Source: Candidatus Marinacidobacterales bacterium
Lineage (GTDB): Bacteria > Acidobacteriota > Vicinamibacteria > Marinacidobacterales > DATDRI01
Direction of reading: 5' to 3'
Assembly: GCA_965226495.1 (NCBI GenBank)
Contig: OZ245365.1
Coordinates: 3,232,001-3,296,000 of the forward strand
Length of the DNA stretch: 64,000 nt
Shown: positions 25,862 to 52,516 of the stretch, piece after piece
Position numbering within the stretch: position 1 is the first letter of the stretch
Layout: each line of letters opens with the position of its first letter
The notes under the pieces: model-generated
Told to the model about the DNA's origin: nothing
Database searches by the model: none
What the model saw: the letters and a program-made list of their open reading frames with translations, nothing else
Translations under genes and position numbers: made by a program

Positions 25862-26680
25862 ATGAGTGTGCAGGGGTTCCCGAATGACCGTCTGCTAGTG
25901 GGCACGGCATGGCTGGCCGACCAATTGAACGATGCCGATTTGCGCTTGGTGGAAGTGACTGCGCCCGGCGCCGGATACAAGTTCGGGCATGTCGCAGGCG
26001 CCGTCTATCTGAATGTCGACGATCTGTTGACGGGAAAAGCCACCGGAGTCGAGCGAACGGTGGGCCCCATCGAAGAAGTGGCCGTCGTCCTCGGCGGACT
26101 GGGCCTTTCCCGAGACAAGAAAATCGTCGTTTACGACGAGTGCGACGAACGCATCGGGGGAACCCGAGCCTCACAACTTTTTTGGCTCTTGGAGTACTTG
26201 GGCTGTGAGCAGGTGCACTTGCTGGAAGGCGGCATCGAACGTTGGCTCGCCGAAAACCGCCCCACGACGGGCGAGACGCCCGACGTTCAAAAGGCCACGT
26301 TTACTCCCGCGATTCGTGAAGAGCGTCTCGCGACCGCGGATTGGATCGTGGAGCACCTGGAGAATTCAGATGTATCGGTCATAGACGCGCGAGCACCCGA
26401 GGAATACGAGGACGGCCATATCCCAGGGGCCGCGAATCGGTCCTGGGACAAGACCTTAACGCGAAAAGCCTACCAAGCGTTTCGATCCGCCGAAGAGCTT
26501 AGAGGCGAGTTCGCCGAGTTGGGTGCAACCGAAGACAAAGAGGTTGTCGCCTACTGCATGACGGGCGCGCGCTCCTCTCACATCTACCTGACGCTACGTC
26601 TATTGGGTTACACTCGGGTCCGGAACTATGACGCGTCTTGGACGGAATGGGGGTCCAGACGGGACTTGCCCAAGGCCTGA
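25862..26680 (+). CDS. Two-domain rhodanese (thiosulfate/mercaptopyruvate sulfurtransferase)
   Basis: GHVAGA, DAR..EEY..GHIPGA, active loop YCMTGARS, YDASWTEWG. Confidence 0.9.
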   Translation: MSVQGFPNDRLLVGTAWLADQLNDADLRLVEVTAPGAGYKFGHVAGAVYLNVDDLLTGKATGVERTVGPIEEVAVVLGGLGLSRDKKIVVYDECDERIGGTRASQLFWLLEYLGCEQVHLLEGGIERWLAENRPTTGETPDVQKATFTPAIREERLATADWIVEHLENSDVSVIDARAPEEYEDGHIPGAANRSWDKTLTRKAYQAFRSAEELRGEFAELGATEDKEVVAYCMTGARSSHIYLTLRLLGYTRVRNYDASWTEWGSRRDLPKA

Positions 26681-26769: not shown

Positions 26770-27942
26770 ATGGCAACCAGTCAACTACCGCTGTTCCCAG
26801 TTACCGTCGTGGGCAGCTGGCCAAGACCTCAGTATCTCTTGGACGCGCTCAGGAAGCGCCAAAAGGGGCAGTTGAGCTTCGAAGAGTTTCAGAAAGTCGC
26901 CGACAAAGCGGTGTTGGAGCAGCTACGCTACCAAGACGAGGCGGGTGTCGACATCGTGAGCGATGGCGAGCAACGCCGAGACAATTTCTACTCGTTCGTC
27001 GTGGAGAAGTTGGATGGCGTAGAGTTGATGACCTTGGCGGATCTCATGGATCACGTCGAGGACAAGGCGGGATTCGACTCCATCCTCCGCAGCATGGACG
27101 CTCCGGCCTTCGGTATCAAGAATCCCACTGTGACCGGAAAGATAAAACCCAAGATGTCGCTGGCGGTCGACGAGTACGAGTTCTTGAAGCAGCACACCGA
27201 CAAGCCCATCAAGATCCCTCTACCCGGCCCTTACATTCTAATCCGATCCATGTGGGTCAAGGGCGTCTCTGACAAGTTCTATCCCACTCAGGAAGATCTG
27301 GCCGTGGATATCGTCAAGATTCTGCGCGACGAGCTCATCGCCCTTCGTGATGCGGGCGTCGACTTCGTGCAATTCGACGAGCCGGTCCTTACCGACGTCG
27401 CTTTCAACCCAGCGGTGAAGGAACGTACTTTCATGTGCGCCTCGATGGCGGCGTCCTCAGGCGATCCGACTAAAGAGCTCCTGCTTGCAACGCGCATGAT
27501 GAACAGTATCGTCGACGGCGTCGATGGAATCCGCACCGGTGTTCACGTGTGCCGTGGCAACTGGAGCCGCAAGGACGAGGTGTTGCTCAAGGGAAGCTAT
27601 GAGCCGCTCGTCCCGACCATGATGGGAATGCATCTCGATCAGCTCGTCCTCGAGTACGCGACACCGCGCGCCGGCGAGCTGGCGGCCTTCTCACATCATC
27701 CCAAGGAAAAAGAGATCGGTTTGGGCGTCGTAAATCCTCGGACTGATGAGATGGAATCGCCGGACTCGGTAGTCGAACGGGTGAACGAAGCGCTGCAGTA
27801 CTTCAAACCCGAACAAATCTACCTCAACCCCGATTGCGGTTTTGGAACTTTCGCCGAGCGGCCCATGAATCCTGCCGACATCGCGGGCAAGAAACTCGCC
27901 ATTATCGGTGAGGCCGCCAAGAAGCTTCGCGCGAATCATTAA
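26770..27942 (+). CDS. MetE C-terminal-domain-only Zn thiol-alkylating enzyme (methionine synthase II / epoxyalkane:CoM transferase family)
   Basis: TVVGSWPRP, DIVSDGEQRR, VQFDEP; Zn ligands HVC(RGNW), LEY, NPDCGF. 390 aa with no N-terminal MetE half. Confidence 0.85.
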   Translation: MATSQLPLFPVTVVGSWPRPQYLLDALRKRQKGQLSFEEFQKVADKAVLEQLRYQDEAGVDIVSDGEQRRDNFYSFVVEKLDGVELMTLADLMDHVEDKAGFDSILRSMDAPAFGIKNPTVTGKIKPKMSLAVDEYEFLKQHTDKPIKIPLPGPYILIRSMWVKGVSDKFYPTQEDLAVDIVKILRDELIALRDAGVDFVQFDEPVLTDVAFNPAVKERTFMCASMAASSGDPTKELLLATRMMNSIVDGVDGIRTGVHVCRGNWSRKDEVLLKGSYEPLVPTMMGMHLDQLVLEYATPRAGELAAFSHHPKEKEIGLGVVNPRTDEMESPDSVVERVNEALQYFKPEQIYLNPDCGFGTFAERPMNPADIAGKKLAIIGEAAKKLRANH

Positions 27943-27960: not shown

Positions 27961-28488
27961 ATGTCTGAATCGAGCAAGATCAACGGACTGGATATAGAGG
28001 AGACGCGGGAGGCCATCAAGACCGTAAGCGCCGCGCCGGGGGCGTCGAATGCCCCCAAGAAATCACGGTGCAAATGGCTCACCGGTCTCAAATTCAAGAC
28101 CTACGTGCGGAACCACGTCTTTCTCGTGGACGAGCCGGCGCACCTCGCGGGCGAGGATGAAAGCCCTAACTCCATGGAGTACGTTCTGGGCGCCTATGCC
28201 GCTTGCCTCGCCACGGGGTTTGTTCTCAATGCCAGCCAAAAAGCGATCGAGATCCACAACCTCGAAGTGGTCGTAGACTCGACCCAAAACAACGTGTTCA
28301 CGTTTTTGGGTTTGGGCGGGGAAGGGCACGCCGGGTTCGACACCATTAATGCCAAGCTCTTCGTTCAGGCCGACGCGGACGAGGCCACGCTCAAGGACGT
28401 TTGGACCCAGACGGTCGACACCTCCCCGGTGCACAACTCTCTGGCTAGGCCCGTGACCATCAAACCCGACATTGAGATCGTCCCGTAA
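27961..28488 (+). CDS. OsmC family protein
   Basis: DEPAHLAGEDESPNSMEYVLGAYAACL; terminal TSPVHNSL. Confidence 0.85.
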   Translation: MSESSKINGLDIEETREAIKTVSAAPGASNAPKKSRCKWLTGLKFKTYVRNHVFLVDEPAHLAGEDESPNSMEYVLGAYAACLATGFVLNASQKAIEIHNLEVVVDSTQNNVFTFLGLGGEGHAGFDTINAKLFVQADADEATLKDVWTQTVDTSPVHNSLARPVTIKPDIEIVP

Positions 28489-28822
28489 GACCCAAGAAGA
28501 GCTAGGCGTCTTCTTCCTTCTTCGCGCTGGCCCGGAGCACTTTTGGCACCAAGTTGCCACCAGAGCAGAGCGGACGCTGTCCCTCTCGAGATCGCCGATT
28601 TGAAAAGTCGAACGGCAGACTCCTATAATCCGCCGAACGGCCACGCGGGTATATTTGTATATCCAGACCCACCAGACGCGGCATATCCCGGGGCAGGAAA
28701 CAACGGATCATGCCCAACACGAATAGTCTGAGTTACATGAACGAAGACACCCACGCTGCGATATCCAATACCTGGACCGGCTTGGATGTGCTATCGAATT
28801 ATCCAGATCTAGATACTTACTG

Positions 28823-29354
28823 TTCGGCGGGCATTGCTTGATGTACAAGACACTCAGCTTTCAGTATGCCGGGGCGCTAGATTGGGAGTATGACGAGACT
28901 GGGGAGCCGGTAACTCCGGGCGGCAGGGCGCTCACGGAGAGGATTGCTGCCTCTTTGACGTGCGAGACGGTACGGTCCGCGGCGGTCGAACAACACGAGT
29001 ACTACGGATGGGGTTTTACCAGCGAACTCGGACGAGATTCCTTCTACAACGTGCTTAATGCGGTGGACCCAGACGTCTTCTTCACGGTCAAAATGGAATG
29101 GTATCTAGCGAAGAAAACACTGTTTCGCTCCCCAGAGATAGCTTTGAAGCGATATTGCCAGATTCTGCGCGATGCTGTTTCCTCTCTCGACGGAGTCAGC
29201 GAGGTGAAGTGGGAGGAACAACGCCGTTGATTTGCGGGAGCCGCCGAACAATGCGTTGGAGTCGGACGGCGCCGAGGCTTCTTGGGCGCGTGAGATACTG
29301 CCGCAGGGGGGCGGTGTCGGCGGCGCTCCAGCCGCGCCGCCACTCAACGCACTG
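28823..29354 (+). mobile_element. Integron gene cassette 1
   Basis: Starts at G|TTCGGCGG (28822), which is complementary to CCGCCGAAC at the start of the attC at 29241. One ORF lies in between. Confidence 0.75.
28838..29230 (+). CDS. Hypothetical protein (cassette gene)
   Basis: 130-aa ORF that fills cassette 1. Confidence 0.7.
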   Translation: MMYKTLSFQYAGALDWEYDETGEPVTPGGRALTERIAASLTCETVRSAAVEQHEYYGWGFTSELGRDSFYNVLNAVDPDVFFTVKMEWYLAKKTLFRSPEIALKRYCQILRDAVSSLDGVSEVKWEEQRR

Positions 29355-29360
29355 TTATAC
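29243..29360 (+). other. attC site 1
   Basis: R'' GCCGAAC, L'' GTTGGAG, L' CTCAAC (extrahelical G), R' GTTATAC. Confidence 0.8.
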
Positions 29361-29594
29361 AGGCGATTTCAACGGAACCATCAAAGCTTTGCTGAGAATC
29401 CCGCCGGGGCCCAGATAAGTGGCCGTCGAGCGAAAGGACGCTCGAGGTATTTCCTAGTGCACAATGGGCACCGATCGTGCCATCAGCGCGTTAACTCCAT
29501 GTCTCACGACGTGATACGACAGCCCGACTGATACACAATCAGTAGGTGTGCAGCGTCGAGCTCCCGTGAATGTCGCTTACCGAATCGGGCGGCC

Positions 29595-31120
29595 TTAATC
29601 CTGGCCTGTCGAGAACGACAGCAACTCCTCCGGTTTTCTGGGAACGCCTCCCTTGATCACCCACTCGATGGCTCGAGCGTTCCGGACGTCCTCTAGCGGA
29701 TTGGCGCTCAAGACGACTAGATCTGCTAGCTTACCCGGCTCGATGCTGCCAATTTCATTGTCCACTCCCAAGGCGATAGCTCCCCCGTAGGTTGCCGCCA
29801 CCAGGACCTCGGCCGGGCTCAGACCCGCCTCCTGGAGGAACTGCATTTCGAGATGCGAGCCGATGCCGACCGGACCTGCGTCGGATCCGAGAGCAACGGT
29901 GACACCTCGGGCCTGAGCCTCGCGCGTGTTCTCTTGCAGGTGCTCCCACAACGTGGCTAGGGCCGGAGGCAGTCCGGGGAATCGAGAGGTCGCGCCGGAC
30001 GCAGCGTTCGCTCTTTGCTCGTACCGCGCCAGCTCACTGTCGGAGAGTCTCCTTTTGAAGTTCTCATCCGATAGGATGCGTTTCGCGTAGGCTTGCTGGT
30101 CTCCATTAGCAAGAATCACCAGGTGCGTCGGTGTCCAGACGATGTTTCGCACGCGCATCTCTTCCCACGTCGGAGGAATCAGCAGCTTAACCGAGCGCGG
30201 GGAACCGTACGGAGATTTGACAGGAAAATTAAGACTTGACCGTCCGGGGAATCGAGTCGCGCCGGACCAGCGTTCGCTCTTTTCGTACCGCGCCAGCTCC
30301 ATGTTCTCATCAGGAGTTTCGCGCTTGCTGGCTCCGGAATCACCAAGAACACGCGCATCTCTTCCCAGAGTTTCTCGTCCACCTCCGAGTCCATTGTTCC
30401 ATGCATCAAGGCGTTGGCTCCGGCAAGAACGGCCTCTCGAGTGTCGGCGAGCTGCGTGACATGAACATAGACCCTCATGTCCAATGTTCTAGCTTCATCG
30501 ACCAGGGCGGAAAAGACCTCTGCTCGAAGCCGCGGCACCTTCTTCGAACCCATCCAGAGGACACCGTCGTCCTGAATGATCTTGATCTGCCGGAATCCCT
30601 GGTCCTTGCATTTCCTAACCATCCGTCGGGCAGCGTCGGCCGTGTGCGGTTTGAAGAGCTCCAGTCCCGGCATGACATTCTGCGGAAACCCGCCGCTGAA
30701 AAACGGGCTCATGTGAAGGCGGGGAGAGAGAGTCTTGGGCGATTGCGATCGCGCTTCCAGCTGGCGGGGATCGTCCGGGAGAGACCCGGGCATCAAGTGG
30801 ATGGTGGTGAATCCCATGGCCAAATACGTTTGAAGCGCCTCCTCGGAGCTGGAGTGCGTGTGGACATCCACAAATCCCGGGACGACCCACTTTTGCTTCC
30901 CATCGATGACCCGCGCGCCCTCCGGTATCGTAATGCTCCCCTCACTGCCGACGGCGAGCACGCGGTCGCCTTCGAGGACGATGACCGCATCAGCCTGCAG
31001 CACCCCCGTCTTCCCATCGATCAAGTTCGTGGGCGAGATGACCACTCTTCGCGCCTGGCCGATCGCCAGGATAGCGGAAGCATGCGCGAGGAATAACACA
31101 AGAGCAAGGACCCTTTTCAT
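29595..31120 (-). pseudogene. Secreted amidohydrolase, interrupted by a 200-bp insertion (30168..30367); inverted gene of cassette 2
   Basis: PGFVDVHTH, YVHVT, LMHG, GSDAG, GSIEPGKLADLVVL. Removing 200 bp fuses DEKLWEEMRV to RNIVWTP in frame (about 441 aa). Confidence 0.8.
30166..30241 (+). mobile_element. 76-bp copy of the right end of the IS256 element
   Basis: Identical to 34115..34190, including the terminal IR. Confidence 0.9.
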
Positions 31121-31290
31121 GCAGCACCTTCCTAGTTTCATGCGGTGGCGCCGACCGCCCGGCCGACTCCGACCACCGCTCGTTCTAGCCTGGAATCTAG
31201 TCGTTCGACAGGTGGGATTCAAACGGCTTGGGTGTGCGGGATTGCGCCACCTCAGGGGAAGGCAAAGCTGGCAATGGTGAAGCCAGAGCT

Positions 31291-31396
31291 GTATAACAGC
31301 CGCTGGAGGCGACGGCCGACTTTTCCTGATTCAACGACCGAATCAGCTTTACGCTATCTTCAACGAAGTCGGCCGCAGCTCAGCTTTTCGTTAGGC
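31291..31396 (+). other. attC site 2
   Basis: R'' GTATAAC (exact complement of GTTATAC at 29354), L'' GCTGGAG, L' CTCAGC, inner stem CGGCCGACTT/AAGTCGGCCG, R' GTTAGGC. Confidence 0.8.
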
Positions 31397-31405
31397 AGTC
31401 GAAGA

Positions 31406-31816
31406 ATGAATGAGGGTCGCACGGTAGCTTGGGTTGGAACCGCGATCGTCGTCGTGCACGGGCTAGTCAACGCAGCACACGCGACGGCTCATTCGGAACT
31501 AGGCGTCGAAATGTCGAAGTGGCAGGAAACCTTTATTCTGGTCGTCATTGGTCTGAGTCCCCTTGCAGCCGCGGTGCTTCTTTGGACGGCCCACGCACGG
31601 TTAGGCGCGGTCATCCTTGCCGGCGCGATGGCGGCGGCATTCGTGTTCGGAGTCTACTATCACTACGTGGCTGTTTCGCCGGACCATGTGGGGCATTTGC
31701 CGCCGGGGGATGCACGTGGCTTGTTTCGAGCAAGTGCTTTGTTTGTTGCTGTTACTCAAGCTCTGGGCACTGTTGTGGGCCTATGGGGTATCCGAACGCT
31801 TCGAGGTGCATCATAG
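31406..31816 (+). CDS. His-rich four-TM membrane protein (cassette 3 gene)
   Basis: ATG 10 bp after attC2; VHGLVNAAHATAH, YYHY..SPDHVGH. Confidence 0.7.
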   Translation: MNEGRTVAWVGTAIVVVHGLVNAAHATAHSELGVEMSKWQETFILVVIGLSPLAAAVLLWTAHARLGAVILAGAMAAAFVFGVYYHYVAVSPDHVGHLPPGDARGLFRASALFVAVTQALGTVVGLWGIRTLRGAS

Positions 31817-31861
31817 ATGCTTGTCGTGGCCGAGGAGGTCTGTAGTGTCCTGAGTCTTTGG

Positions 31862-32788
31862 TTACACACTGAGTCCTGTTTTCTGTCTAAGGCGTTCATA
31901 CGGGGTCTGGCCGTCTAAGCCTCCATGAGGTCGATGGTAGTTATAGTACTTCTCCCACTCGCTCAGTTTTGCATTGAATAGGTGAATGTCGTCGCTGACC
32001 CCGTCCTTGTCTAGAAGCTGGTAAAACTCTTGGTCGTCGGTGCGATGAGAGCGTTCGACCTTGCCGTTCAATCGAGGGGTCCGGGGCGTGATGTATACGT
32101 GGGATATGTCTTTGTCCTGAAGGTGCCAGTGAAACCTCGACTGGAATTCAGCACCGTTGTCGGTTTGTATGACGTGAATTCTGAAGGGTAATCGGTGGAT
32201 GACTTCATCGATGAACTGAATGGCCGTCTTTTGACTGCAGGCATCGAATATCTTCAAGACCCGTATCCTTGTACAGTCGTCTACGGCCGTGAACTGATAG
32301 AACCTTCTCCGGGTGCCTGGTATTCTCTCCAGGAACTTTACATCTACCTGCAGCCTATGACCAGGCTGGCGTCTCTCGTACCGCTTCCAGCGCTTCTTGT
32401 GGGCTCGATGTTTTTGACTTGCGGGCAATCGACTCAGGCCATTGCGCTCCAGGACTCGGTGAACCGTGGAAGCGGCGATTTTTATCTGATGATATCGATG
32501 CAGGTAGGAAGCGATTCTCGCCGGACCAAAGTGGTAGTTTTGCCGCAAGTAGAGAATCTTGCTGACCGTCTGTTTGGGAGTCTCACGGGGGCAATTCTTG
32601 GGCCTCCTTGGTCTATCACAGAGGCTGGCCTCGCCATGGGCCTCGTACCGAGCCAGCCACTTGTAGAAAGTCTTCCGCGAGATCCCGAAATATCTACAAG
32701 TTCTTGAGACATTATGAGTTGTTTCGGCTGCGTGACGAATGATCTTCATTCGCCAATTCACTAGCCGCTGTCGTTCCGTCTTCTTCAT
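31862..32788 (-). CDS. IS481-family transposase
   Basis: N-terminal HTH; DDE motifs QVDVK, QTDNGAEF, NGKVERSH; YNYHRPH. Confidence 0.9.
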   Translation of the reverse strand: MKKTERQRLVNWRMKIIRHAAETTHNVSRTCRYFGISRKTFYKWLARYEAHGEASLCDRPRRPKNCPRETPKQTVSKILYLRQNYHFGPARIASYLHRYHQIKIAASTVHRVLERNGLSRLPASQKHRAHKKRWKRYERRQPGHRLQVDVKFLERIPGTRRRFYQFTAVDDCTRIRVLKIFDACSQKTAIQFIDEVIHRLPFRIHVIQTDNGAEFQSRFHWHLQDKDISHVYITPRTPRLNGKVERSHRTDDQEFYQLLDKDGVSDDIHLFNAKLSEWEKYYNYHRPHGGLDGQTPYERLRQKTGLSV

Positions 32789-32791
32789 GTT

Positions 32792-34190
32792 GGTGATGTC
32801 TTAAGATTCCTGTCAAAGAAAAACGATGTATGGTTCCCCAAGCTCAAACCCGTCCCCGTCATGGGACAGAAAAGGAGAACCATACATCATGGGAAAGGTA
32901 CTACCGAGTCAGCGATTGCTCAAGCAGTTCGAGGAACAACTGGTATTTGGGGAGATGAATCTCTCGGAGATCGTCCGGTCGGGAGCTCAGATGATGCTTC
33001 AATATGCGTTGGAGCGCGAGGTGACGGAGGCGTTGGGTCGAAACTACTATGAGAACGCTCCGGCAACGACGAAGGAGAAGGGACGACGCAACGGGTATGA
33101 GTCGCATCGGGTCCTCACGGGCGAGGGAGCGGTGACGGTGCAAGTGCCGCGGGTACGAGAAACAGAGAAGGTGTTTCAGTCAAAGATTCTCGACGCCTAC
33201 GTGAGCCGGACCGAGAAACTCGATGAACTGATCGCGCGGATGTACGTCCACGGGATGTCGACGCGTGACATTGAGGCGACGTTCGCGGACGTGCTGAGCG
33301 GCACGGGTGTCTCGAAGTCGGTGGTGAGCCGGGTCACACGGTGTCTGTCGGAGGATTTCGAGGCGTTTCGAAAACGGGATCTCTCGAACGAGAAGCTGTT
33401 GTATCTCGAGCTCGACGGCACGTACCTGCGCTACCACCAAGGAGCGGAGAGGAAAGAGCCCATCCTCGTTGCGACCGGCTATCGCGCTGATGGGACGCGA
33501 GTTCTTCTTCATATCGGTGTCGGCAACCGAGAATCCTACGAGAACTGGAAGGGGTTCTTGCAGGAGATGGTGGCCCGAGGAATGAGGGAGCCGTTGCTCA
33601 TCGTGACGGACGGGAATCCTGGAGTGCTCAAAGCGATCGCAGAGGTCTTCCCTCGAAGCCTCAAGCAACGTTGCCAGAAGCACCGCCTCGAGAACATCCT
33701 GGGCAAGGCTCCGAAGGAAGTGCGCGACGAACTCAAGGCGGCCATCCTTGAGTCGTTCCATGCGAACAGCTACGAGCAAGGGCTGAAGAAGGGTCGGGAG
33801 GTGATCGCTCGGTACCGTCAACGATTCCCGAGCGCGATGAAGTGCATGGAAGAGACCCTCGAAGCGTGTCTTCAGGCGCTACGCCTTCCTGCGGCGCATC
33901 ACAAAAGGCTTCGCACGTCGAATCTACTTGAGCGCACGTTCGGAGAGCACAAACGTCGCACAAAGGTCATTCCTCACTTCTTCACCGAGGAGGCCGCGAT
34001 GAAACTCTCGTTCGCTGTGCTCTTGGCCGTCGCAAACAAATGGCGCGGCGTGAGGATGGATGTCTTCGCCGCTAGGAAAGTCGAGGAGCTTCGCAACGAG
34101 CTTCTCCCGCAAGGCACGTCGGAGGAATCAGCAGCTTAACCGAGCGCGGGGAACCGTACGGAGATTTGACAGGAAAATTAAGACTTGACC
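32792..34190 (+). mobile_element. IS256-family element with 8-bp target duplication
   Basis: IRL GGTGATGTCTTAAGATTCCTGTCAAA, IRR TTTGACAGGAAAATTAAGACTTGACC; DR TTCATGTT at 32784..32791 and 34191..34198. Confidence 0.92.
32889..34139 (+). CDS. IS256-family transposase
   Basis: RNGY, GMSTRDI, LDG, TDG..G, QRCQKH, TSNLLER. ATG at 32889 after an AGGAG RBS. Confidence 0.92.
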   Translation: MGKVLPSQRLLKQFEEQLVFGEMNLSEIVRSGAQMMLQYALEREVTEALGRNYYENAPATTKEKGRRNGYESHRVLTGEGAVTVQVPRVRETEKVFQSKILDAYVSRTEKLDELIARMYVHGMSTRDIEATFADVLSGTGVSKSVVSRVTRCLSEDFEAFRKRDLSNEKLLYLELDGTYLRYHQGAERKEPILVATGYRADGTRVLLHIGVGNRESYENWKGFLQEMVARGMREPLLIVTDGNPGVLKAIAEVFPRSLKQRCQKHRLENILGKAPKEVRDELKAAILESFHANSYEQGLKKGREVIARYRQRFPSAMKCMEETLEACLQALRLPAAHHKRLRTSNLLERTFGEHKRRTKVIPHFFTEEAAMKLSFAVLLAVANKWRGVRMDVFAARKVEELRNELLPQGTSEESAA

Positions 34191-34268
34191 TTCATGTTGC
34201 ACTACCTCCCTGCAGCACTTAAAAGAAGACTAGTGTGTCACCTCTGTCCTGGGGTTTTACAGAGCGCC

Positions 34269-34372
34269 GTCTAACGAGCAGTTGCAGCAGACGAAGCGCG
34301 AGTATGATGCAGGGGCTGTCCAAGCTCTTACGTCATCGAGTCGCGCTTCGCGGCTGAACGGCCCTGCTATAC
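34269..34372 (+). other. attC site 3 (degenerate R')
   Basis: R'' GTCTAAC, L'' GTTGCAG, L' CTGAAC, inner stem CGAAGCGCGA/TCGCGCTTCG. R' reads GCTATAC instead of GTT. Confidence 0.7.
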
Positions 34373-35485
34373 CGCCCGACAGCAAGGGGTCGTGGGGGAT
34401 GCCAAAAGAGAGCCACCGCAATCTCCTTTGTCTGCCGTCGAATTCCCGCGCCCAACGTACCAGCCATCGCTAGCCCCTGGATCACGTGATCCAAGATTGG
34501 AAACCGCTCGCACGCTATAAGGCATTCCAGCATCTCGGGAAATCATGGCGCCGCCCACTCGCTGTGGGGTCGAAGAGATAGACGGCTTGCTCTTCGAACG
34601 TCCCTTCGAACTCGGCAGGGGCAACGGCTTTTCGATAACTCCTAATGGCCCCTCCCAAGTCAGTCGGTTGGGAGCCCGACCCTTGACCTTCAATCGCCCC
34701 TCGGTGATCGCGGCGTGACACACCGCGCAGACCGTGTGGAGATTCCAAGTCTCGTCGGGACCACCCCGAGCCCGCGGGATGATGTGGTTCGCACTCAAAG
34801 CAGTTCGATTGCTGCACCCAGGCCGGGTGCACTTCCAGCCGGCTCGCTCGGCGACCTTTCGCACGTAGCCGCCATCGGTCTCGGGTCCGTCTCCAAACGC
34901 CGGCGTTATTGCATACCCGCAAAGCGCCTCAGCGCACATGAGATCGAATACCTCGATGTCGCTCAAGGTCTTTCCCGCCAAACGCTCGAGCGCCTCTCTC
35001 GCCTGCTCCCACGCCTCGACTCGATCACCTTCGAGCATGAAGAAGAGAGATTTCCTCGTCGTCGGTGGCTGCTTTCTTTTGACTTCCTGTTCGAGCTGGC
35101 GATTGCTCATGTTCTTGCAACGGTCGAGCCACTTGGCTTCGGTCTTGGGTGTCGCGACTTTGACGACCTCTCGCGCCTTGGTCCAAGGGATGTCTCCTTT
35201 CTGGAAGGCCGCCTTTAATCGCGGGAGTTCTTCGAAACGTTCTGCCATGTTTAGCAGCGACGGCGTCTTGCGATCCTCGAAACCCAGTCGTTCGCGAGCG
35301 TAATCGACGGTCGAGGCGAAACCGTATTTCAGGTAGAGTTGCCGGTTCTCGACCTCCTGGAGGTAGAAGCACAAAACGGACTCCACCCGGCGGTGTACTC
35401 GAGCGGCGGAAACCAGGCGTCGATCGACCTCGCTCGGGGGAAGACCTTTGGTCATTTCAAGAACGACTTCGGCAGGCACGGACAT
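34367..35485 (-). CDS. DUF222-like plus HNH endonuclease
   Basis: YGFASTVDYARERLG, GDIPWTKARE; RAGWKCTRPGC...NHIIPRARGGPDETWNLHTVCAVCH. Confidence 0.8.
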   Translation of the reverse strand: MSVPAEVVLEMTKGLPPSEVDRRLVSAARVHRRVESVLCFYLQEVENRQLYLKYGFASTVDYARERLGFEDRKTPSLLNMAERFEELPRLKAAFQKGDIPWTKAREVVKVATPKTEAKWLDRCKNMSNRQLEQEVKRKQPPTTRKSLFFMLEGDRVEAWEQAREALERLAGKTLSDIEVFDLMCAEALCGYAITPAFGDGPETDGGYVRKVAERAGWKCTRPGCSNRTALSANHIIPRARGGPDETWNLHTVCAVCHAAITEGRLKVKGRAPNRLTWEGPLGVIEKPLPLPSSKGRSKSKPSISSTPQRVGGAMISRDAGMPYSVRAVSNLGSRDPGASDGWYVGRGNSTADKGDCGGSLLASPTTPCCRAV

Positions 35486-35536
35486 GGCACTTACTCCTTT
35501 TAAAATGAGTGGGTTGCTATGAAAACCCGATACTCG

Positions 35537-35565
35537 AATATAGGAGTATATTAGGTGAATGTCAA
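35537..35565 (-). promoter_or_regulatory. Near-consensus sigma70 promoter of the HNH gene
   Basis: Minus strand TTGACA-17 bp-TATATT, followed by an AAGGAG RBS. Confidence 0.75.
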
Positions 35566-35882
35566 GTCATGTCATACGCACAATCTAACTAATTAGAAAC
35601 AAAGGACTTAGACAGAAAAACCAAAGGGTCGAAGGACCTGGCCGGTGGCTCAACTCATTGATAAAACAGTACTTACGCGCCCGGGCGCGGGCAAAAGACG
35701 TCTCTTCCCTTTCGAGGCTGCCCCCGTCGCCGACCCCGGTCCGTTCCGTCGTCCTCGTCTAGCGTCTGACGCCCGGCCTCGTTTCGGCAACCGACGCCCG
35801 GCAAACTTCCCTCGTGGCAAGCTTAGCAGGCATCCCTTTTTGGCGACTTACTGGCTCAATCCAGTAAAATAGTCAGTCGACC

Positions 35883-36785
35883 ATGAAGAACCTAGTTCCC
35901 CTGCCGTATCGCCGGGTCTCGGTCCAGCCCTACGAACGCGAGATGACGGAAAAGCCCATCCGCGCGCACCTGATGGGCCGGGAGACGTATCGGCGGACGG
36001 ACTTCATCGTCCTGAGGAAGGGCCCAGACAGTAAGGAGACGGCGGTCGTCGAGGTCACGGCCCCCGATAGGGAGAGTCTCTTCAGCCCCATCGATTCGGT
36101 CCGGATCGTGGCCCTGCCCGAAACCTGTGTCTTCGTCGAAGCCCCGGAGACCGATCCGGCCAACCCCTCCTCCCTGGCAGCCAAGGCGCACGAGCTCGGG
36201 ATCGAGGGCGAGCAAACGCTGGTGGTGCGCGGCAAGTACGAGCACGTCGGCTTCATTCACCACCCCGATCCCATGGTCATCCGTGTCGTAGAAGTTTCTC
36301 CGCCGGAGCCGCCCAAGCTCTTCGACCTCGCCCAACGCGTGCTCAGCTATGCGGAGCTTCCCCCAATACGGTTGGAGCTCACCCGCATCGACCTGAACGA
36401 GCTCGCCGAAGGCCACTCCCCTTCCGCCTTTCTGGTACCTTGCCGCTCCGGAGGACTGGATGGGCTCAAGGCACCGGTGTACTTTCTGGACGAGCGTCCG
36501 GCACGGCTCGATTGGACGATGATCGGGTGCGAGCGCAGTCTACAGTTCCATCGTCACTACTACGGCGACGAGCCGCCCCGCATAGAGCTCTGCCCGCGCC
36601 AATTGGCCGGCGAGAACGACGCTCCAACGCTACTCAAGTGTTGCCTCCTCGAGTTCGATTCCGAGCTCGACGAAAATGTTGCGATAGCACCCTGGGGCGC
36701 TGATCTGGCGATGGTGGAGAAGGCCATTCGTCAACTCGTGGCGGTCGCGGAGCGCGCACCCGCCGAAGCTACCAAAGCTACGTGA
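35883..36785 (+). CDS. Cys-rich hypothetical protein heading the CoM-biosynthesis-like operon (xcbA position)
   Basis: 300 aa; PCRSGG, IGCERS, LCPR, KCC. Co-oriented 18 bp before comA. The XcbA link is positional only. Confidence 0.7.
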   Translation: MKNLVPLPYRRVSVQPYEREMTEKPIRAHLMGRETYRRTDFIVLRKGPDSKETAVVEVTAPDRESLFSPIDSVRIVALPETCVFVEAPETDPANPSSLAAKAHELGIEGEQTLVVRGKYEHVGFIHHPDPMVIRVVEVSPPEPPKLFDLAQRVLSYAELPPIRLELTRIDLNELAEGHSPSAFLVPCRSGGLDGLKAPVYFLDERPARLDWTMIGCERSLQFHRHYYGDEPPRIELCPRQLAGENDAPTLLKCCLLEFDSELDENVAIAPWGADLAMVEKAIRQLVAVAERAPAEATKAT

Positions 36786-36803
36786 CATAGGAGAAAAGCA
36801 TTC

Positions 36804-37640
36804 ATGACCAAAGCTTGGACTTCCATCTTTCCTGAGCTGGCGGCCCGCTCGCGGAAACCACGAACTCGCGGCGTGACGATGCTGCTGGACAAGTGCCAGG
36901 GCCCCGCGGCCACCGAAGATCTCCTGGCCATGTCGGGGGACTACATCGACTTTTGGAAGATGTCTTACGGAACGTCGGCTCTCCTCGACGACGGTTTCCT
37001 ACGTCGCAAGATTGAAACGATCGGCCAGCACGACATCATCGTCCACCCTGGCGGCACATTGGCGGAATACGGGATCATGCGAGGTCTCACCCGAGAGTAC
37101 GTCCGACACTGCCAGGCTCTCGGTTTCACCGGTGTCGAGATCTCGGATGGCACGATCGAAATGTCGCCCAGTGTGCGCCGGGATGCCATTCGGTACGCCC
37201 GGGATCTCGGTTTAACCGTCATCACCGAGGTCGGTAAGAAAGACCCCAACGAGCAACCTGCGGTCGAGCTGCTAGCGGAACAAGCGCTAGGCGACTTCGA
37301 TGCGGGCGCCTCCTGGGTCATCGTCGACGCGCGTGAGTCGGGTCGAGGAGTGGGGGTGTTCGACGCGGATGGCACCGTCCGCGAGGAAGCTGTCGATGCT
37401 ATGGTCGATATCTTGGAAGGCCACCTCGATAAGATGATCTGGGAGACGCCGCTCAAGAAACAGCAGGAGTACTTCATCATCCGCTTCGGCCCGCATGTCG
37501 GACTCGGCAACATCCAACCGCGCGACGTCCTGGCACTTGAATCGATGCGCACCGGTATCCGCTTCGAGACTTTCCACGCCTTTGCCGAGAAGCTCCTCGA
37601 AGAGGCCCAGCAGGCTCGAGACGCGGCGGACGACGGATAA
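36804..37640 (+). CDS. comA: Phosphosulfolactate synthase (ComA/XcbB)
   Basis: KPRTRGVTMLLDK, PGGTLAE, VEISDG, TEVGKKD, ARESG, GLGNI. Confidence 0.9.
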   Translation: MTKAWTSIFPELAARSRKPRTRGVTMLLDKCQGPAATEDLLAMSGDYIDFWKMSYGTSALLDDGFLRRKIETIGQHDIIVHPGGTLAEYGIMRGLTREYVRHCQALGFTGVEISDGTIEMSPSVRRDAIRYARDLGLTVITEVGKKDPNEQPAVELLAEQALGDFDAGASWVIVDARESGRGVGVFDADGTVREEAVDAMVDILEGHLDKMIWETPLKKQQEYFIIRFGPHVGLGNIQPRDVLALESMRTGIRFETFHAFAEKLLEEAQQARDAADDG

Positions 37641-37651
37641 CGAGAGAACCC

Positions 37652-39247
37652 ATGGTTTTTGGCGACCCCCCCTCCGACGCCCTCATCCGAACCGCCTATG
37701 CGCGCGAGGCGGGCGACACGGCTATCCTTTATAAGGGGATGAGCCTGGCCGATATCGCCCACGTCGTCGGCTTGGTGGAGTCCAAGATCATTCCCCGCCA
37801 GGCGGGAGGCGAGCTCTTGTGGGCATTGCTAGAAATCCATCCTTCACCCCCGATGGATTTTGCCGTCGATCCCGGCCGCGGTGATTCCTACTCGAACCGC
37901 GAGGCTTACTTGAGAATGCTCACTCCCTCGGCCGGATGGCTGTCGGCAGGCCGGGCGCGGCGCGAGTCCACGACGACCGGTTATCGAATCGCCGTCCGAG
38001 AGCGGTTGCTGAGCTTGGCCGGAGCACTCGGCGACTGCGCCGCGGCGGCACTCGAGCAATGTGACGCGCATCGAACGACTCTCTTCCCCGACTACACGTA
38101 CCTTCAGCCGGCTCAACCCACCGTGTTCGCGCATTACCTCCTGACGTTCGTCTACCCCATGCTCCGTGATCTAGAGCGTCTCGGTGGCGCCTTCGCGCGT
38201 ACCAATGTCTCGCCGGCCGGCTGCGGCAGCGTGAACGGAAGCCGGCTACCCTTGGACCGCGAGGCGCTTTCCCAAATGCTCGGCTTCGACCGCCCCATCC
38301 CGCACGCACGCGACGCCATGTGGCAGGCGGACGGCCCGATCGAAAACGCGGCACTCATCACCGCGGTGCTCATCAACCTCGACCGCCTGGCCGAAGACCT
38401 GCAGATCTTTTCGACATCCGAGTTCGGGCTCGTCGAGTTGGCCGACCGCCATGCGCGCCCGAGCGTGATCATGCCGCAGAAGAAAAACCCGTACTCGCTC
38501 GCCTATCTCCGAGGGCTTGCCGGGGTTTCCATCGGCACCTTGGCTGCGATGGCTGCGGTCGCCAAGACGCCTTCCGGACAGATCGACAATCGCATGTTCG
38601 CTTATGGCGACGTACCGCGGGCGCTCGATCAAGCGACGGACGCAACACGGTTGATGGCCGACGTGCTCCGAGGGCTCACTGTGAAGACGGATGTCGCTGA
38701 AAATCGAGCCGCACAAGACTTCCTCGGTGCGACCGACTTGGCGGAAGTCATCATGATCGAGTGCGAGATCGACTACAAAACCGCGCACCGTATCGTAGCC
38801 CGAGCCATTCGGGAGGCCCTCGAATCAAACGAAGTAGGCGAATCGGCGCTAGCCATCGAACGACTGGAAGCCGCCGCCGAAGCCACCATCGGAAAAAAAC
38901 TCGGCCTCTCGAAGAAAAGAATTCGCGAGGTGCTCGACCCGGCGAGTATCGTCGCCACGCGCACCGGTATCGGAGGCGCCGCGAGCGAATCGGTGAGCGA
39001 GATGATCGCCGCATGCAGAAATGGCCTGAACGAAAATGAAGCGTGGCGCCTGGAGACGGGAAGGAAACTCGTGGAGGCCGAAACACGATTGGGAATGAAG
39101 GCCACACTACTGAAGATCGTTCCCGCCGAGCCCGCTGAGAAAGACGGCTCGCCTGAATCGCAGCAAGCCGAAACCAGTTCTTGGGAAAAGGAGTTCGAAG
39201 ATCTCCCCAAGATGCCTCCCGGGCGCCGCCGATTTCCAGCCGAATGA
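37652..39247 (+). CDS. Argininosuccinate-lyase-like protein (XcbC-like)
   Basis: AGRARRE, DYTYLQPAQP, SVIMPQKKNP; non-canonical catalytic residues. Confidence 0.8.
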   Translation: MVFGDPPSDALIRTAYAREAGDTAILYKGMSLADIAHVVGLVESKIIPRQAGGELLWALLEIHPSPPMDFAVDPGRGDSYSNREAYLRMLTPSAGWLSAGRARRESTTTGYRIAVRERLLSLAGALGDCAAAALEQCDAHRTTLFPDYTYLQPAQPTVFAHYLLTFVYPMLRDLERLGGAFARTNVSPAGCGSVNGSRLPLDREALSQMLGFDRPIPHARDAMWQADGPIENAALITAVLINLDRLAEDLQIFSTSEFGLVELADRHARPSVIMPQKKNPYSLAYLRGLAGVSIGTLAAMAAVAKTPSGQIDNRMFAYGDVPRALDQATDATRLMADVLRGLTVKTDVAENRAAQDFLGATDLAEVIMIECEIDYKTAHRIVARAIREALESNEVGESALAIERLEAAAEATIGKKLGLSKKRIREVLDPASIVATRTGIGGAASESVSEMIAACRNGLNENEAWRLETGRKLVEAETRLGMKATLLKIVPAEPAEKDGSPESQQAETSSWEKEFEDLPKMPPGRRRFPAE

Positions 39248-39271
39248 GCGCTCGAGTCAAATCTTAATTTT

Positions 39272-40663
39272 ATGCCATCTCACATCTCCGATTCGCTGAT
39301 CTACCGGAGCTCATGGGGCACCGAGGAAACGCGTGCGATATTCGACGACGAGCCCCGAACCCGCGCTTGGCTCGAGATCCTGGCCGTGCTGGCGGAAAGC
39401 CAAGCGGAAGTAGGTCTCATCCCTGCCGGTGATGCCAAGAAAGTAGCGCGCGCTTGCCGAGAGATGACGCTCGACACCGAGTTCTTCGAGGAGGTCCGGA
39501 AGGGTTTCGAGGAGACCAATCACACCACGCTCGGCCTCATTCGCGCCGTCCAACGCCGTTGCCCCGACGGCTCGGGCGAATGGGTCTACTACGGTGCCAC
39601 CGTACAAGACGTCGTCGACACCTGGACCATGATGACGGTCGCGCAAGTATGGTCCATCGCGTTCCGGGAGCTGAAAGCGCTCGAAGAGAATCTCCTTAGG
39701 CTCGCGGAGACTCACAAAGATACGGTAATGCCCGGTCGTACGCACGGCCAGCCCGGACTCCCCATCACCTTTGGTTTCAAGGCGGCAGTCTGGGCGAGCG
39801 AGACCCGACGCCACATCGCGCGCCTCAAAGACATTAGAAGTCGCATCGGAGTGGGTCAGCTCGTCGGCGGTGTAGGCAGCATGTCCTCCTTGGGTCCGCA
39901 GGCTTTCACGTTGCAAGAGAAGTTCTGTTCTCGCCTAGGGCTTCGACCGTCGGATATCTCATGGACCACCGCGCGCGACGTCTTTGTAGAATGGTTCCAG
40001 CTGCTAACCCTCATCTCCGGTACCGCAGACAAAATGGGGCATGAGATCTACAACCTGCAGCGTCCCGAGATCGGTGAGGTGACCGAAGGTTTCGTACCGG
40101 GAACGGTGGGGAGCATCACGATGCCGCACAAGCGCAACCCCGAAATCGCGGAGCACCTGGGCACGCTGGCGAGAGTAATTCGTCACAACACGGCGCTCCT
40201 GTCAGAATCTCAAGTTCACGACCACGAGCGGGACGGGCGAGCTTGGAAGTCGGAGTGGGCGGTTCTGGCCGAGACATCGATGGCGGCGGCAAAGCTTCTC
40301 GAGTTGACCAACACGATGATCCAACATCTCGACGTCCACGCCGACCGAGCGCTCGCCAATCTGGAAGCGAGCAAGGGCTTCGTGCTGTCGGAAGCCGTCA
40401 TGCTGAAGCTAGCGGAGCACGTTGGCAAGCAAAGCGCTCACACATTAATGTACGAGACCGCGATGAAGGCGCATGAGGCAGATCGTCCGCTAAAGGACGC
40501 CGTCTTAGAAAATGATGCCATCCGCAAGCACCTGTCCGCGGAGACCATCGAGGCTCTTTTCGACTACCGGCGACATACAGGCTTCTGTAGCGAGCAAGTC
40601 GATCGGGTGCTGGCGCGAGCCAAGAAGGAGAGGGAGAGGGAGAGGGAGAGCGACTCGAAATGA
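39272..40663 (+). CDS. Adenylosuccinate-lyase-like protein (XcbD-like)
   Basis: YGATVQD, GRTHGQ..PITFGFK, GSITMPHKRNPE, HDHERDG. Confidence 0.8.
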   Translation: MPSHISDSLIYRSSWGTEETRAIFDDEPRTRAWLEILAVLAESQAEVGLIPAGDAKKVARACREMTLDTEFFEEVRKGFEETNHTTLGLIRAVQRRCPDGSGEWVYYGATVQDVVDTWTMMTVAQVWSIAFRELKALEENLLRLAETHKDTVMPGRTHGQPGLPITFGFKAAVWASETRRHIARLKDIRSRIGVGQLVGGVGSMSSLGPQAFTLQEKFCSRLGLRPSDISWTTARDVFVEWFQLLTLISGTADKMGHEIYNLQRPEIGEVTEGFVPGTVGSITMPHKRNPEIAEHLGTLARVIRHNTALLSESQVHDHERDGRAWKSEWAVLAETSMAAAKLLELTNTMIQHLDVHADRALANLEASKGFVLSEAVMLKLAEHVGKQSAHTLMYETAMKAHEADRPLKDAVLENDAIRKHLSAETIEALFDYRRHTGFCSEQVDRVLARAKKERERERESDSK

Positions 40664-41073
40664 AACCCTGTTTCTACATCGGGTTGGCACTGATTCTATT
40701 CACGTTGGGAGGGTGTGGCAACGGAGAAGGCACCAAGAGTGGCGAAACCAACATCAAACCCCTCCCCACCGGCAACCCGACAGACGGAGAAAGCGTCTTC
40801 TTGGGCACGTGTATCAAATGCCACGGCAAAGATGCGACCGGGATCGAAGGTTCAGGAACCAATCTGACCATCAGCGAGTTCGTCAAAGCTCATACTGATG
40901 CCGAGTTGGTGGAGTACATCAAGACCGGACGCGCGATGAACGACGCGCTCAACACGACGGGGATCGCGATGCCCCCGTACGGCGCCAATCCAATGCTAAC
41001 CGATCAGGATCTCGCCGACGTCGTGGCTTACTTACGAGCCGTTCAGCGTGCACCCGATTCACCGACGAACTGA
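40660..41073 (+). CDS. Lipoprotein monoheme cytochrome c
   Basis: Lipobox LGGC, CIKCH, distal MPP. ATGA overlap with the xcbD-like gene. Confidence 0.85.
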   Translation: MKPCFYIGLALILFTLGGCGNGEGTKSGETNIKPLPTGNPTDGESVFLGTCIKCHGKDATGIEGSGTNLTISEFVKAHTDAELVEYIKTGRAMNDALNTTGIAMPPYGANPMLTDQDLADVVAYLRAVQRAPDSPTN

Positions 41074-41087
41074 GGAAAAACATACCC

Positions 41088-42083
41088 ATGTCGACTCCCA
41101 CTCGTTTCGAGCTAGGCATTTTTCCCACACCTCTCGTCGAGGCCTCGCGCTTATCGCAAGCCCTCGAGGGTCCACGCATCCTTATCAAGCGCGACGACCT
41201 CACGGGTTTCGGCTTCGGTGGCAACAAAGTACGTGGACTCGAGTATTCCATCGCGGACGCCATCGCGCAGAAAACCGATGTCGTCGTCACCGGAGCGGGC
41301 CCCCAATCGAACCACATCCGCGCCACCGCGGCCGCGGCGCGAGCGGCGGGGCTCGATGTGGTCGCCGTCATGCACGGTGACCGGCCCGCCGAGACGCAGG
41401 GCAATTTTCTTCTCGATCAATGGCTAGATGTCGAGATCCGTTTCACTAACGATCCCGACCGCAGCCTCTTAGATCAGAAGATCGAGGAAGTCGCCGAGGA
41501 GCTCCGGCAATCGGGGCGACGACCGTATGTCATTCCGCGGGGCGGTTCTTCGGGACTCAGTGCCTGCGGTTACGTGCAGTGTGCCCGTGAAATGGGGGAG
41601 CAGCTCGTAGACCGCGGCGCCAGACCCCACTGGCTGGTCATCGCAACCGGGGGCGGTGGCACGCATGCGGGTCTCCTTGCCGGTTCGAAGATTTACGATG
41701 CACCGTATCGCATTCTCGGCGTCACGGTGAGCCGTCCGCCGGAGGAGTGCGAGGAACGCATCGGACGCCTGGCGCGTGAGGCGGCGAAGCTCGTCCGGCC
41801 TCAAGGTGATCCTATCCAGATCGCTCCCGACGACATCTCTGTCCGTGACGGCTTCATCGGCGAGGGGTACGGCATTCCCTCGCCGGAAGGCATCGAAGCC
41901 ATCCGCCTGCTAAGCCGGACAGAAGGAATGTTCTTGGATCCCGTCTATACCGGCAAGGCCATGGCCGGCCTTATTGGTGAGATCCGAGCGGGGCGCATTA
42001 GGAAGGGCGAGACGGTCGTCTTCGTTCACACCGGAGGAGAGCCTGCCCTCTTTGCCTACCCGGAGATCGCAACGCGTTCATGA
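41088..42083 (+). CDS. PLP-dependent D-cysteine-desulfhydrase-like protein (XcbE-like)
   Basis: KRDDLTG..GGNKVR, QSNH, DPVYTGK, HTGG. Confidence 0.85.
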   Translation: MSTPTRFELGIFPTPLVEASRLSQALEGPRILIKRDDLTGFGFGGNKVRGLEYSIADAIAQKTDVVVTGAGPQSNHIRATAAAARAAGLDVVAVMHGDRPAETQGNFLLDQWLDVEIRFTNDPDRSLLDQKIEEVAEELRQSGRRPYVIPRGGSSGLSACGYVQCAREMGEQLVDRGARPHWLVIATGGGGTHAGLLAGSKIYDAPYRILGVTVSRPPEECEERIGRLAREAAKLVRPQGDPIQIAPDDISVRDGFIGEGYGIPSPEGIEAIRLLSRTEGMFLDPVYTGKAMAGLIGEIRAGRIRKGETVVFVHTGGEPALFAYPEIATRS

Positions 42084-52326: not shown

Positions 52327-52420
52327 GGAATTTCTCCTTTCCTGGAAAGCAATTTGCCAGTGGCCCCTCTGGAACACCATGCCGAGCAGATCACGGGTGC
52401 GTCAAAGCGTCTTCACGATG

Positions 52421-52433
52421 CAAATAATTGATT
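52421..52433 (-). promoter_or_regulatory. IHF-consensus site
   Basis: Minus strand AATCAATTATTTG matches WATCAANNNNTTR exactly. Confidence 0.45.
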
Positions 52434-52485
52434 CTTAAAGAGTTGGTGAGTTGGATCACGCAGAAAAGGGTGGGTTGCCCCAAGG

Positions 52486-52516
52486 AAAAAGGTCCCGCGC
52501 CTTTCGGCGGGGACCT
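52486..52516 (-). terminator. Intrinsic terminator after the P460-family gene
   Basis: AGGTCCC(G)CGCC-tttc-GGCGGGGACCT stem with a T-tract on the minus strand. Confidence 0.7.

Follow-up and report, generated by a model that had tools for sequence, protein, structure and literature searches.

Outside archaea, coenzyme M (CoM; 2-mercaptoethanesulfonate) has so far been linked with nothing but the metabolism of alkenes and epoxides. In Xanthobacter, its synthesis begins with sulfite and phosphoenolpyruvate (PEP) and proceeds through phosphate elimination, cysteine addition, and pyridoxal phosphate (PLP)-dependent release of sulfoethanethioaldehyde, which is reduced by the [2Fe-2S] protein XcbA, as outlined by Wu et al. 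(2022, PMC9457059). The reference genes, xcbA-E (Xaut_5051-5055), were located on plasmid pXAUT01 of Xanthobacter autotrophicus Py2 by a tblastn search with XcbA and are directly preceded by xecA (epoxyalkane:CoM transferase, EaCoMT), xecC (2-KPCC), xecD, and xecE. According to a 2024 comparative study (PMC11507031), methanogens and aerobic alkene users are the only organisms with known genes for making CoM, and a Desulfobacterota preprint describes archaeal-type comABCDE genes in some bacteria, which constitute a different pathway. Our literature searches turned up no account of xcb genes in a setting other than alkene or epoxide metabolism (PMC10681998 and PMC4412061 use xcb or phosphosulfolactate with another meaning); supplementary files may list further genomes. 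Here, we report on an xcb operon in a 64-kb stretch of DNA (the window; bases 3232001-3296000) of a single-contig, 6.34-Mb genome that is 94.8% complete. An earlier sequence-only reading had suggested a probable acidobacterium as the source, which fits, as same-genus and same-family relatives are Candidatus Marinacidobacterales. The operon in all likelihood belongs to a previously undescribed clade, and to a gene island, with no link to epoxide genes.

The operon consists of six open reading frames (ORFs) at 35883-42083, all on the plus strand and separated by 18, 11, 24, −4 (an overlap), and 14 nucleotides (Table 1); the tightly packed, co-oriented run that the sequence-only reading had proposed was recovered at identical coordinates. 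BLASTP identities to Py2 XcbA through XcbE are 63, 47, 44, 50, and 49%, respectively. The Cys-rich first ORF, previously only queried as xcbA, scores far above the cut-off of the XcbA model, and its five Cys residues (C187, C216, C237, C253, and C254) are invariant in 17/17 aligned sequences, including that of Py2. The assignment of the second ORF as ComA held likewise, with a score above the curated cut-off. The ArgH-like lyase is probably XcbC, reaching only 258 bits on the argH model (cut-off 279.5), the PurB-like lyase is XcbD, and the D-cysteine-desulfhydrase-like enzyme is probably XcbE: its best-scoring family is NF052537, CuyA follows with 335 bits, its best solved structure is a D-cysteine desulfhydrase, and the GGNK PLP-lysine motif of Py2 XcbE is kept. 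The cytochrome c gene noted between xcbD and xcbE was borne out by two Pfam matches, and its first 4 nucleotides are shared with the end of xcbD. A regular-expression check for the AFS signature motif gave no match in any sequence, Py2 included, and was uninformative. The operon resembles that of Py2 in its five families, their A-B-C-D-E order, and the conserved XcbA cysteines and XcbE motif. Unlike in Py2, no xecA, xecC, xecD, or xecE was found in the genome, a cytochrome c gene lies between xcbD and xcbE, and the proteins form a separate clade. Judged from sequence, the six genes appear to be a complete five-gene bacterial CoM pathway with an inserted cytochrome c gene, and we hold with considerable confidence that this is a real CoM operon by which CoM is very probably made.

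The sequence-only reading had raised the possibility that the two lyases are housekeeping enzymes. In a tree of 37 rows, all 18 XcbC rows, the window's included, lie on one side of a branch with SH-aLRT support of 96, and the 17 XcbD rows, again with that of the window, are set apart by a branch with support of 95. The genome's own ArgH and PurB fall outside both groups on long branches, which the tree tool cautions are insecurely placed. Separate housekeeping genes are indeed present apart from the xcb operon (ArgH, TIGR00838, 525 bits, cut-off 279.5; PurB, TIGR00928, 548 bits, cut-off 326).

To survey the genome, tblastn searches were conducted with 11 Py2 proteins, and a single xcb cluster was found. 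No alkene-oxidation or epoxide-carboxylase set had been noticed in the window, and this extends to the whole 6.34-Mb genome: the searches returned no close XecA (best match 23.5%), no close XecC/2-KPCC (best 25%), and no specific hydroxypropyl-CoM dehydrogenase; the latter two drew nothing beyond generic SDR and DSOR hits at 25-45%. The genome also lacks a soluble di-iron monooxygenase (PF02332, best 23.1 bits, cut-off 24.4) and an MCR alpha subunit. When Py2 XecA was searched against sister genomes, two xec-linked genomes serving as positive controls gave matches at 76-77%, three acidobacterial sister genomes gave only a MetE-like gene (27-28%), and three Chloroflexota sister genomes gave nothing. 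On this evidence, CoM would very probably be made for something other than epoxide carboxylation.

XcbA relatives number 1,564 proteins at E ≤ 1e-3 in a large protein collection. In a genome collection with one genome per species, 245 stretches carried an XcbA relative; the best 80 of these were analyzed by tblastn with the window and Py2 proteins, and an XcbA tree of 82 rows was built. The tree splits 60 rows from 22 with SH-aLRT support of 99. The 60-row side contains Pseudomonadota including methanotrophs, Myxococcota, Ktedonobacteria, and others, and xec genes (XecA, XecC, or XecE) lie nearby in 48 of these rows; the remaining 12, mostly on short or cut contigs, are unclassifiable in this respect. 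The known XcbA clade therefore travels with the epoxide-carboxylase genes xecA/C/D/E, and the Methylocystis, Methylocella, and Methylococcales loci all fall within it. The 22-row side holds 4 Acidobacteriota from Marinacidobacterales/Vicinamibacteria, the window among them, and 18 Chloroflexota, mostly Anaerolineales, and a nearby xec gene was found in none of the 22. Together, these data define a distinct XcbA/C/D clade that never adjoins epoxide-carboxylase genes and is horizontally shared between Acidobacteriota and Chloroflexota.

Within 10 kb of xcb in the 22 loci of this clade, we found a MetE-like gene in 7, genes of an MtaA-like/corrinoid/RACo/MtrH set in 12, one or the other in 18, a CMD gene in 12, a ccoN-like gene in 9, a cytochrome c gene in 4, and a P450 gene in 3; because many of the contigs are truncated, these counts are lower bounds. 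Distribution within the phylum is patchy. XcbA occurs in 5 of 61 genomes (this genome and 4 of 60 relatives). The 4 relatives comprise 3 of the 7 other genomes of the family and 1 of 19 from a second family; none of the 28 genomes of a third family has it. A wider sample of 400 other genomes from across the phylum also contained none.

In the acidobacterial loci, the operon is part of a larger island. A same-family genome (G003; loci L009/L012) and two metagenome contigs (L093 and L095) carry, uninterrupted and on one strand, genes for a ccoN-like protein, a ccoO-like protein, CMD, rhodanese, a MetE-like protein, an OsmC-like protein, XcbA, XcbB, XcbC, XcbD, cytochrome c, and XcbE. In the window, the same genes begin at the ccoN-like gene and are split by inserted DNA, so that 7.4 kb separates the OsmC-like gene from xcbA; G003/L009, L093, and L095 have no such insert, and in them xcbA comes directly after the OsmC-like gene. 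The G003 island is flanked by counterparts of genes found at ~12-14 kb and 46-49 kb of the window and therefore lies in the same chromosomal neighborhood. MetE-like orthologues of at least 91% identity and ccoN-like orthologues of at least 86% identity occur only in G000, G002, G003, and G006, a set identical to the family's xcbA-positive members; the island therefore behaves as a unit of gain and loss. Fragments of it are left in G001, G018, and G026. The copy in G018, a second-family relative, is decaying (L010, G018:C1:7557400-7577399): its ccoN is truncated, its xcbC is split over two frames, and two DDE transposases are present; the cytochrome c gene is kept and xcbE is missing. Overall, we conclude that in this acidobacterial family the operon is inherited and lost together with the island.

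Table 1. Features of the xcb operon, the island, and the inserted segment. Positions are those of the window; scores are in bits with model cut-offs in parentheses where given.
Feature	Position	Strand	Description
ccoN-like haem-copper subunit I (island start)	22926-24353	+	PF00115; ccoN model 298 (583)
ccoO-like monohaem subunit	24350-24835	+	PF02433 101.7; one CxxCH
Two small hydrophobic ORFs	24840-25243	+	50 and 84 aa; no family matched
CMD/AhpD-family protein	25328-25783	+	PF02627; single Cys (CxxH)
Two-domain rhodanese sulfurtransferase	25862-26680	+	PF00581 121; catalytic loop CMTGARS
MetE/EaCoMT-superfamily zinc thiol-alkyltransferase-like protein	26770-27942	+	PF01717; no NCBIfam cut-off reached
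OsmC-like protein	27961-28488	+	PF02566 58.8 (27.5); apparently one Cys
Inserted DNA splitting the island	28489-35882		Amidohydrolase fragments, IS481-like, IS256, HNH gene
IS481-like gene	31862-32788	-	Inside inserted segment
IS256	32826-34139	+	Inside inserted segment
HNH protein gene	34367-35485	-	Inside inserted segment; weak IscB-like match, 34.6
xcbA	35883-36785	+	300 aa; [2Fe-2S] thioaldehyde reductase family, predicted last step to CoM; NF052538 443 (150); Pfam DUF7714
xcbB/comA	36804-37640	+	278 aa; phosphosulfolactate synthase; TIGR03849 297 (280); PF02679 270
xcbC	37652-39247	+	531 aa; ArgH-like lyase, predicted phosphate elimination to sulfoacrylate; NF052535 565 (575)
xcbD	39272-40663	+	463 aa; PurB-like 3-sulfopropionyl-cysteine synthase; NF052536 650 (600)
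Monohaem lipoprotein cytochrome c	40660-41073	+	137 aa; PF13442 42.4 (27), PF00034 40.3 (21.3)
xcbE	41088-42083	+	331 aa; PLP enzyme, D-cysteine desulfhydrase family; NF052537 400 (450)

The haem-copper subunit at the head of the island aligns with Pseudomonas stutzeri CcoN (243 bits) and conserves the His ligands H224, H269, H270, H357, and H359. Ser or Thr (Ser in the window) stands in 12/12 island sequences where P. stutzeri has Tyr251 (numbered by our own count along the P. stutzeri chain in the alignment), which we take to be the cross-linked active-site tyrosine. None of the 12 has a Tyr within 16 residues before the HH pair, and the tyrosine segment is five residues shorter than in P. 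stutzeri CcoN. Position His224+4 is Asn, and the Glu of cNOR type at His+4 is absent. One source (PMC11214002) predicts that haem-copper enzymes without an active-site tyrosine are unable to reduce O2 and considers them nitric oxide (NO)-reductase candidates. The pair is like cbb3-type (C-family) CcoNOP oxidases in its CcoN-like and CcoO-like subunits and retained His ligands, and unlike them in having no CcoP, no cross-link tyrosine, and a ccoN score far short of the cut-off. It is possible that the pair is a C-family derivative of a kind not yet described, a haem-copper enzyme with no O2-reducing activity. In L017, the locus corresponding to the two small hydrophobic ORFs holds a FixS-like ORF.

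The operon's cytochrome c has a lipobox Cys19, a C51xxC54H55 motif, and M104, all invariant in 7/7 homologues; it occupies the same position in G002, G003, L093, and L095 and follows xcbD in G018. Its lipoprotein signal places it outside the cytoplasm, and it therefore cannot serve the cytoplasmic Xcb enzymes; it would probably be co-regulated with them and donate electrons to the island haem-copper enzyme. The CMD and OsmC-like proteins each contain one Cys, located at the usual redox motif. A minus-strand ORF at 28063-28644 (h193), considered as a conserved unknown, was rejected as a spurious shadow of the plus-strand OsmC-like gene.

The MetE-like gene had escaped the sequence-only reading, which thereby missed an EaCoMT-superfamily gene inside the 64 kb. 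Its best curated model is NF003317 (204 bits, cut-off 406), the MetE cut-off is not reached, and the ESM Atlas returned "methionine synthase family" clusters only. Its zinc ligands, a His-x-Cys, a Glu, and a Cys, match the EaCoMT ligands in alignment. The two proteins are 23.5% identical, fall into separate alignment blocks, and have nothing but these ligands and the fold family in common, which does not amount to orthology with XecA/EtnE. A metagenome scan with this protein recovered 39 loci, and those at least 76% identical and with downstream DNA (L093-L097 and L102) all run on into an OsmC-like gene and xcbA. Elsewhere in the wider family, L121 (1178-4394) and L128 carry a string of DsbD_TM, TusA, DsrE, a TusA-OsmC fusion, and a distant MetE-like homologue with no xcb genes, which points to a putative sulfur-relay function of that wider family. 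A MetE-like paralogue of 30% identity (G000:C1:1239922-1240926) and some 10 relatives contain one in-frame TGA at a recurring position and may represent a selenocysteine-containing branch. Another paralogue, 58% identical and read through one TAA (L137, G000:C1:4182205-4183341), adjoins genes for Rv1680-like binding and Rv1679-like acyl-CoA dehydrogenase proteins, a different context of organosulfur type.

In the Chloroflexota, a set of genes resembling the mlp clusters lies against xcbA in seven Anaerolineales loci (L028:1511-12862; also L013, L014, L016, L018, L027, and L029). Its components are two or three UroD genes of MtaA-like type, TrmB, DUF3303, a RACo activase that includes a cNMP domain, and a corrinoid protein. 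In six of the loci (L013, L014, L018, L027, L028, and L029), an MtrH-like gene directly follows xcbB and precedes xcbC. In L028, the MtaA-like gene lies at 7499-8611, the corrinoid protein gene at 8655-9392, and the MtrH-like gene at 11717-12862. Among solved structures, the closest to the L028 UroD-family protein encoded next to the corrinoid protein is methylcobalamin:CoM methyltransferase 4ay7 (E = 2.5e-38), with uroporphyrinogen decarboxylases at 8e-10 or weaker. The top NCBIfam models were of MtaA/CmuA type for all three UroD genes, cognate-corrinoid for the corrinoid protein, and MtrH for the inserted gene, all below their cut-offs. Individual loci have further features: L022 has a FolD gene directly 5' of xcbA, P450 genes lie between xcbC and xcbD in L015, L017, and L027 (Chloroflexota), and L097 has a P450 gene inside or beside the operon and, between xcbA and xcbB, a gene of the DinB_2 family (thiol S-transferase superfamily; 4733-5956 and 11845-12345 for the two observations). 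The best NCBIfam match of the inserted P450 is the NO-using TxtE, far below its cut-off.

Because the operon is homologous to that of Xanthobacter, the same chemistry would be expected. XcbB would join sulfite and PEP into phosphosulfolactate, XcbC would eliminate phosphate to give sulfoacrylate, XcbD would add L-cysteine to form 3-sulfopropionyl-cysteine, the PLP enzyme XcbE would release sulfoethanethioaldehyde, and the [2Fe-2S] protein XcbA would reduce it to CoM; the rhodanese could supply the sulfite. As this pathway stands beside oxidase-like, sulfur, and thiol enzymes rather than alkene genes, it probably serves a bacterial CoM role that has not yet been described. The use we consider most likely, held tentatively and at somewhat short of even chances, is that CoM is a thiol acceptor for methyl or alkyl transfer: it would be the nucleophile for zinc-dependent transfer, here by the MetE/EaCoMT-superfamily enzyme and in the Chloroflexota by the MtaA-like, corrinoid, and MtrH sets. 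In its favor are the 18 of 22 clade loci with one or the other kind of gene, the MtrH gene directly behind xcbB in six of them, the relationship of the MtaA-like protein to 4ay7, and the EaCoMT-like zinc ligands of the MetE-like protein. A bolder form of this proposal would have bacteria of two phyla use CoM as a methyl carrier, with a soluble MtrH, corrinoid, and MtaA-like chain interconverting methyl-tetrahydrofolate and methyl-CoM in Anaerolineales, and a corrinoid-independent MetE/EaCoMT-superfamily enzyme in the acidobacteria, wired through the operon's cytochrome c to the tyrosine-less cbb3-derived enzyme. To our knowledge, CoM is so far known as a methyl carrier only from methanogens and their archaeal relatives, and we regard this full scheme as speculative and unlikely as a whole.

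Several observations weigh against methyl transfer as the use of CoM and against parts of the broader interpretation. The genome has no MtaA-like protein (its UroD family consists of HemE only), stand-alone corrinoid protein, RACo, or MtrH, and the strongest evidence for methyl transfer therefore comes from another phylum. MetH is also encoded, which leaves room for the MetE-like gene to be a second, redundant methionine synthase. One locus at 70% identity (L109) has an OsmC-like gene, ccoNO, and CMD with no xcb within 8 kb. Where the MetE-like protein is 50-61% identical, OsmC-like, rhodanese, TusA, or DsrE genes are common neighbors, again with no xcb; MetE-like, OsmC-like, and sulfurtransferase genes therefore constitute a module of their own, and the thiol substrate of this highly conserved family may not be CoM. 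XcbC and XcbE fall below their NCBIfam curated cut-offs. In addition, the insertion sequence (IS) elements part xcb from the rest of the island in the window, and co-regulation in this strain is therefore only putative. Finally, the CMD, OsmC-like, and DinB-type neighbors fit redox or detoxification at least equally well.

That last point underlies the main rival to an acceptor role, in which CoM is a dedicated protective thiol that reduces or resolves the one-Cys, peroxidase-type CMD/AhpD-like and OsmC-like proteins and conjugates electrophiles, with the island acting in oxidative or nitrosative defense beside a tyrosine-less haem-copper enzyme that would remove NO or some comparable small molecule. 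The single-Cys proteins of the island, the frequency of CMD genes across the clade, the DinB_2 gene within the L097 operon, the OsmC gene and second CMD gene of L022, the tyrosine-less ccoN-like subunits, and the lack of gshA and gshB in the genome all agree with it. BshC (441 bits, cut-off 265.8) and EgtD (369.5 bits, cut-off 290.9) are present for bacillithiol and ergothioneine; CoM as the only low-molecular-weight thiol of the cell is thereby ruled out, and it would be an accessory thiol. Furthermore, the patchy distribution of xcb is unlike that of a core redox buffer, and protection leaves the MtrH and MtaA-like genes inside Chloroflexota operons unexplained. We judge this rival rather unlikely, if a serious contender. 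The possibility that the neighborhood has no functional meaning, xcb having settled in a region of sulfur assimilation and respiration while CoM serves some unconnected end, for instance export or cross-feeding, would accommodate the xcb-free MetE-like modules and the absence of ccoNO from the analyzed stretch at 13 of the 22 clade loci. It seems improbable, however, given that the same island recurs in two phyla at 55-95% protein identity, is kept or missing as a whole from one close relative to the next, and has foreign genes (cytochrome c, MtrH, P450, and DinB_2) inserted within the operon.

Both the identity of the product and the absence of epoxide chemistry can also be questioned. The operon might yield a related sulfonate or an intermediate (sulfoacrylate or 3-sulfopropionyl-cysteine), or be a decaying remnant, as the XcbC and XcbE scores, the resemblance of XcbE to the cysteate sulfo-lyase CuyA, the visible decay in G018, and the IS elements abutting the window operon might suggest; yet all five xcb ORFs are intact, full length, in conserved order, and tightly spaced, XcbA, which carries out the CoM-forming step, is the best conserved, and the Xcb proteins of four genera agree at 66-98% identity, a level that purifying selection would be expected to produce, which makes this reading distinctly improbable. 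Least probable of all is a disguised classical role, in which CoM traps epoxides from an unrecognized oxygenase and the MetE-like enzyme is a distant epoxyalkane:CoM transferase. The shared fold family and zinc ligands, the position of the MetE-like protein as the genome's best XecA match, and the P450 genes at four other xcb loci speak for it; its low identity to EaCoMT, the lack of 2-KPCC and of a specific hydroxypropyl-CoM dehydrogenase, the absence of a P450 from the window's island, and the confinement of all 48 xec-carrying loci to the other XcbA clade speak against it. Weighing these readings, we favor, with moderate confidence, the explanation as a whole: a working CoM operon in a non-epoxide clade and island, with acceptance of methyl or alkyl groups as the putative use of CoM.

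The operon was present in 20 sequencing runs from 7 studies, and no RNA run is listed among them. An Rfam scan of 20000-44000 (E ≤ 1) found no riboswitch or other RNA family, and scans for promoters and terminators gave consensus-level matches only, which were not used. Within the inserted segment, two overlapping minus-strand amidohydrolase ORFs (29595-31222) look like one frameshift-broken gene. Farther downstream, 10-14 kb from the operon, 51475-56727 encodes an ECF sigma factor, a cytochrome P460-domain protein (401 aa), a zf-HC2 anti-sigma protein, and a truncated globin, a group that may be related to NO or hydroxylamine. At 3962-6997, a single protein of 1,011 aa combines a Ser/Thr protein kinase with an FGE-sulfatase domain, which is formylglycine-generating enzyme-like.

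An xcb clade with no epoxide genes, located beside methyltransferase, thiol-peroxidase-like, and unusual respiratory genes, indicates a bacterial use of CoM that has not been described. The candidate CoM-using enzymes are, in this genome, the MetE-like protein and, in Anaerolineales, the set of MtaA-like, corrinoid, and MtrH proteins. The finding bears both on how "methanogen-like" methyltransferase clusters in bacteria are read and on which bacteria in the environment could be a source of CoM for methanogens dependent on it. Compared with the soluble CoM methyltransferases of methanogens (MtaA/MtbA, corrinoid protein, and RamA) and the bacterial mlp clusters, as presented by Kountz and Balskus (PMC10418091), the Chloroflexota xcb loci are alike in carrying MtaA-like, corrinoid, and activase genes; they are unlike these systems in that the MtaA-like proteins score below NCBIfam cut-offs, and the window genome lacks the genes altogether. 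That preprint makes no mention of CoM biosynthesis, ComA, or phosphosulfolactate. The etnE/CoM clusters of methanotrophs and of ethene and vinyl-chloride oxidizers (PMC11507031 and PMC8727900) are comparable in placing CoM genes on mobile or patchily distributed DNA with no adjacent alkene monooxygenase, and they differ from the operon described here in keeping EaCoMT together with the downstream epoxide enzymes.

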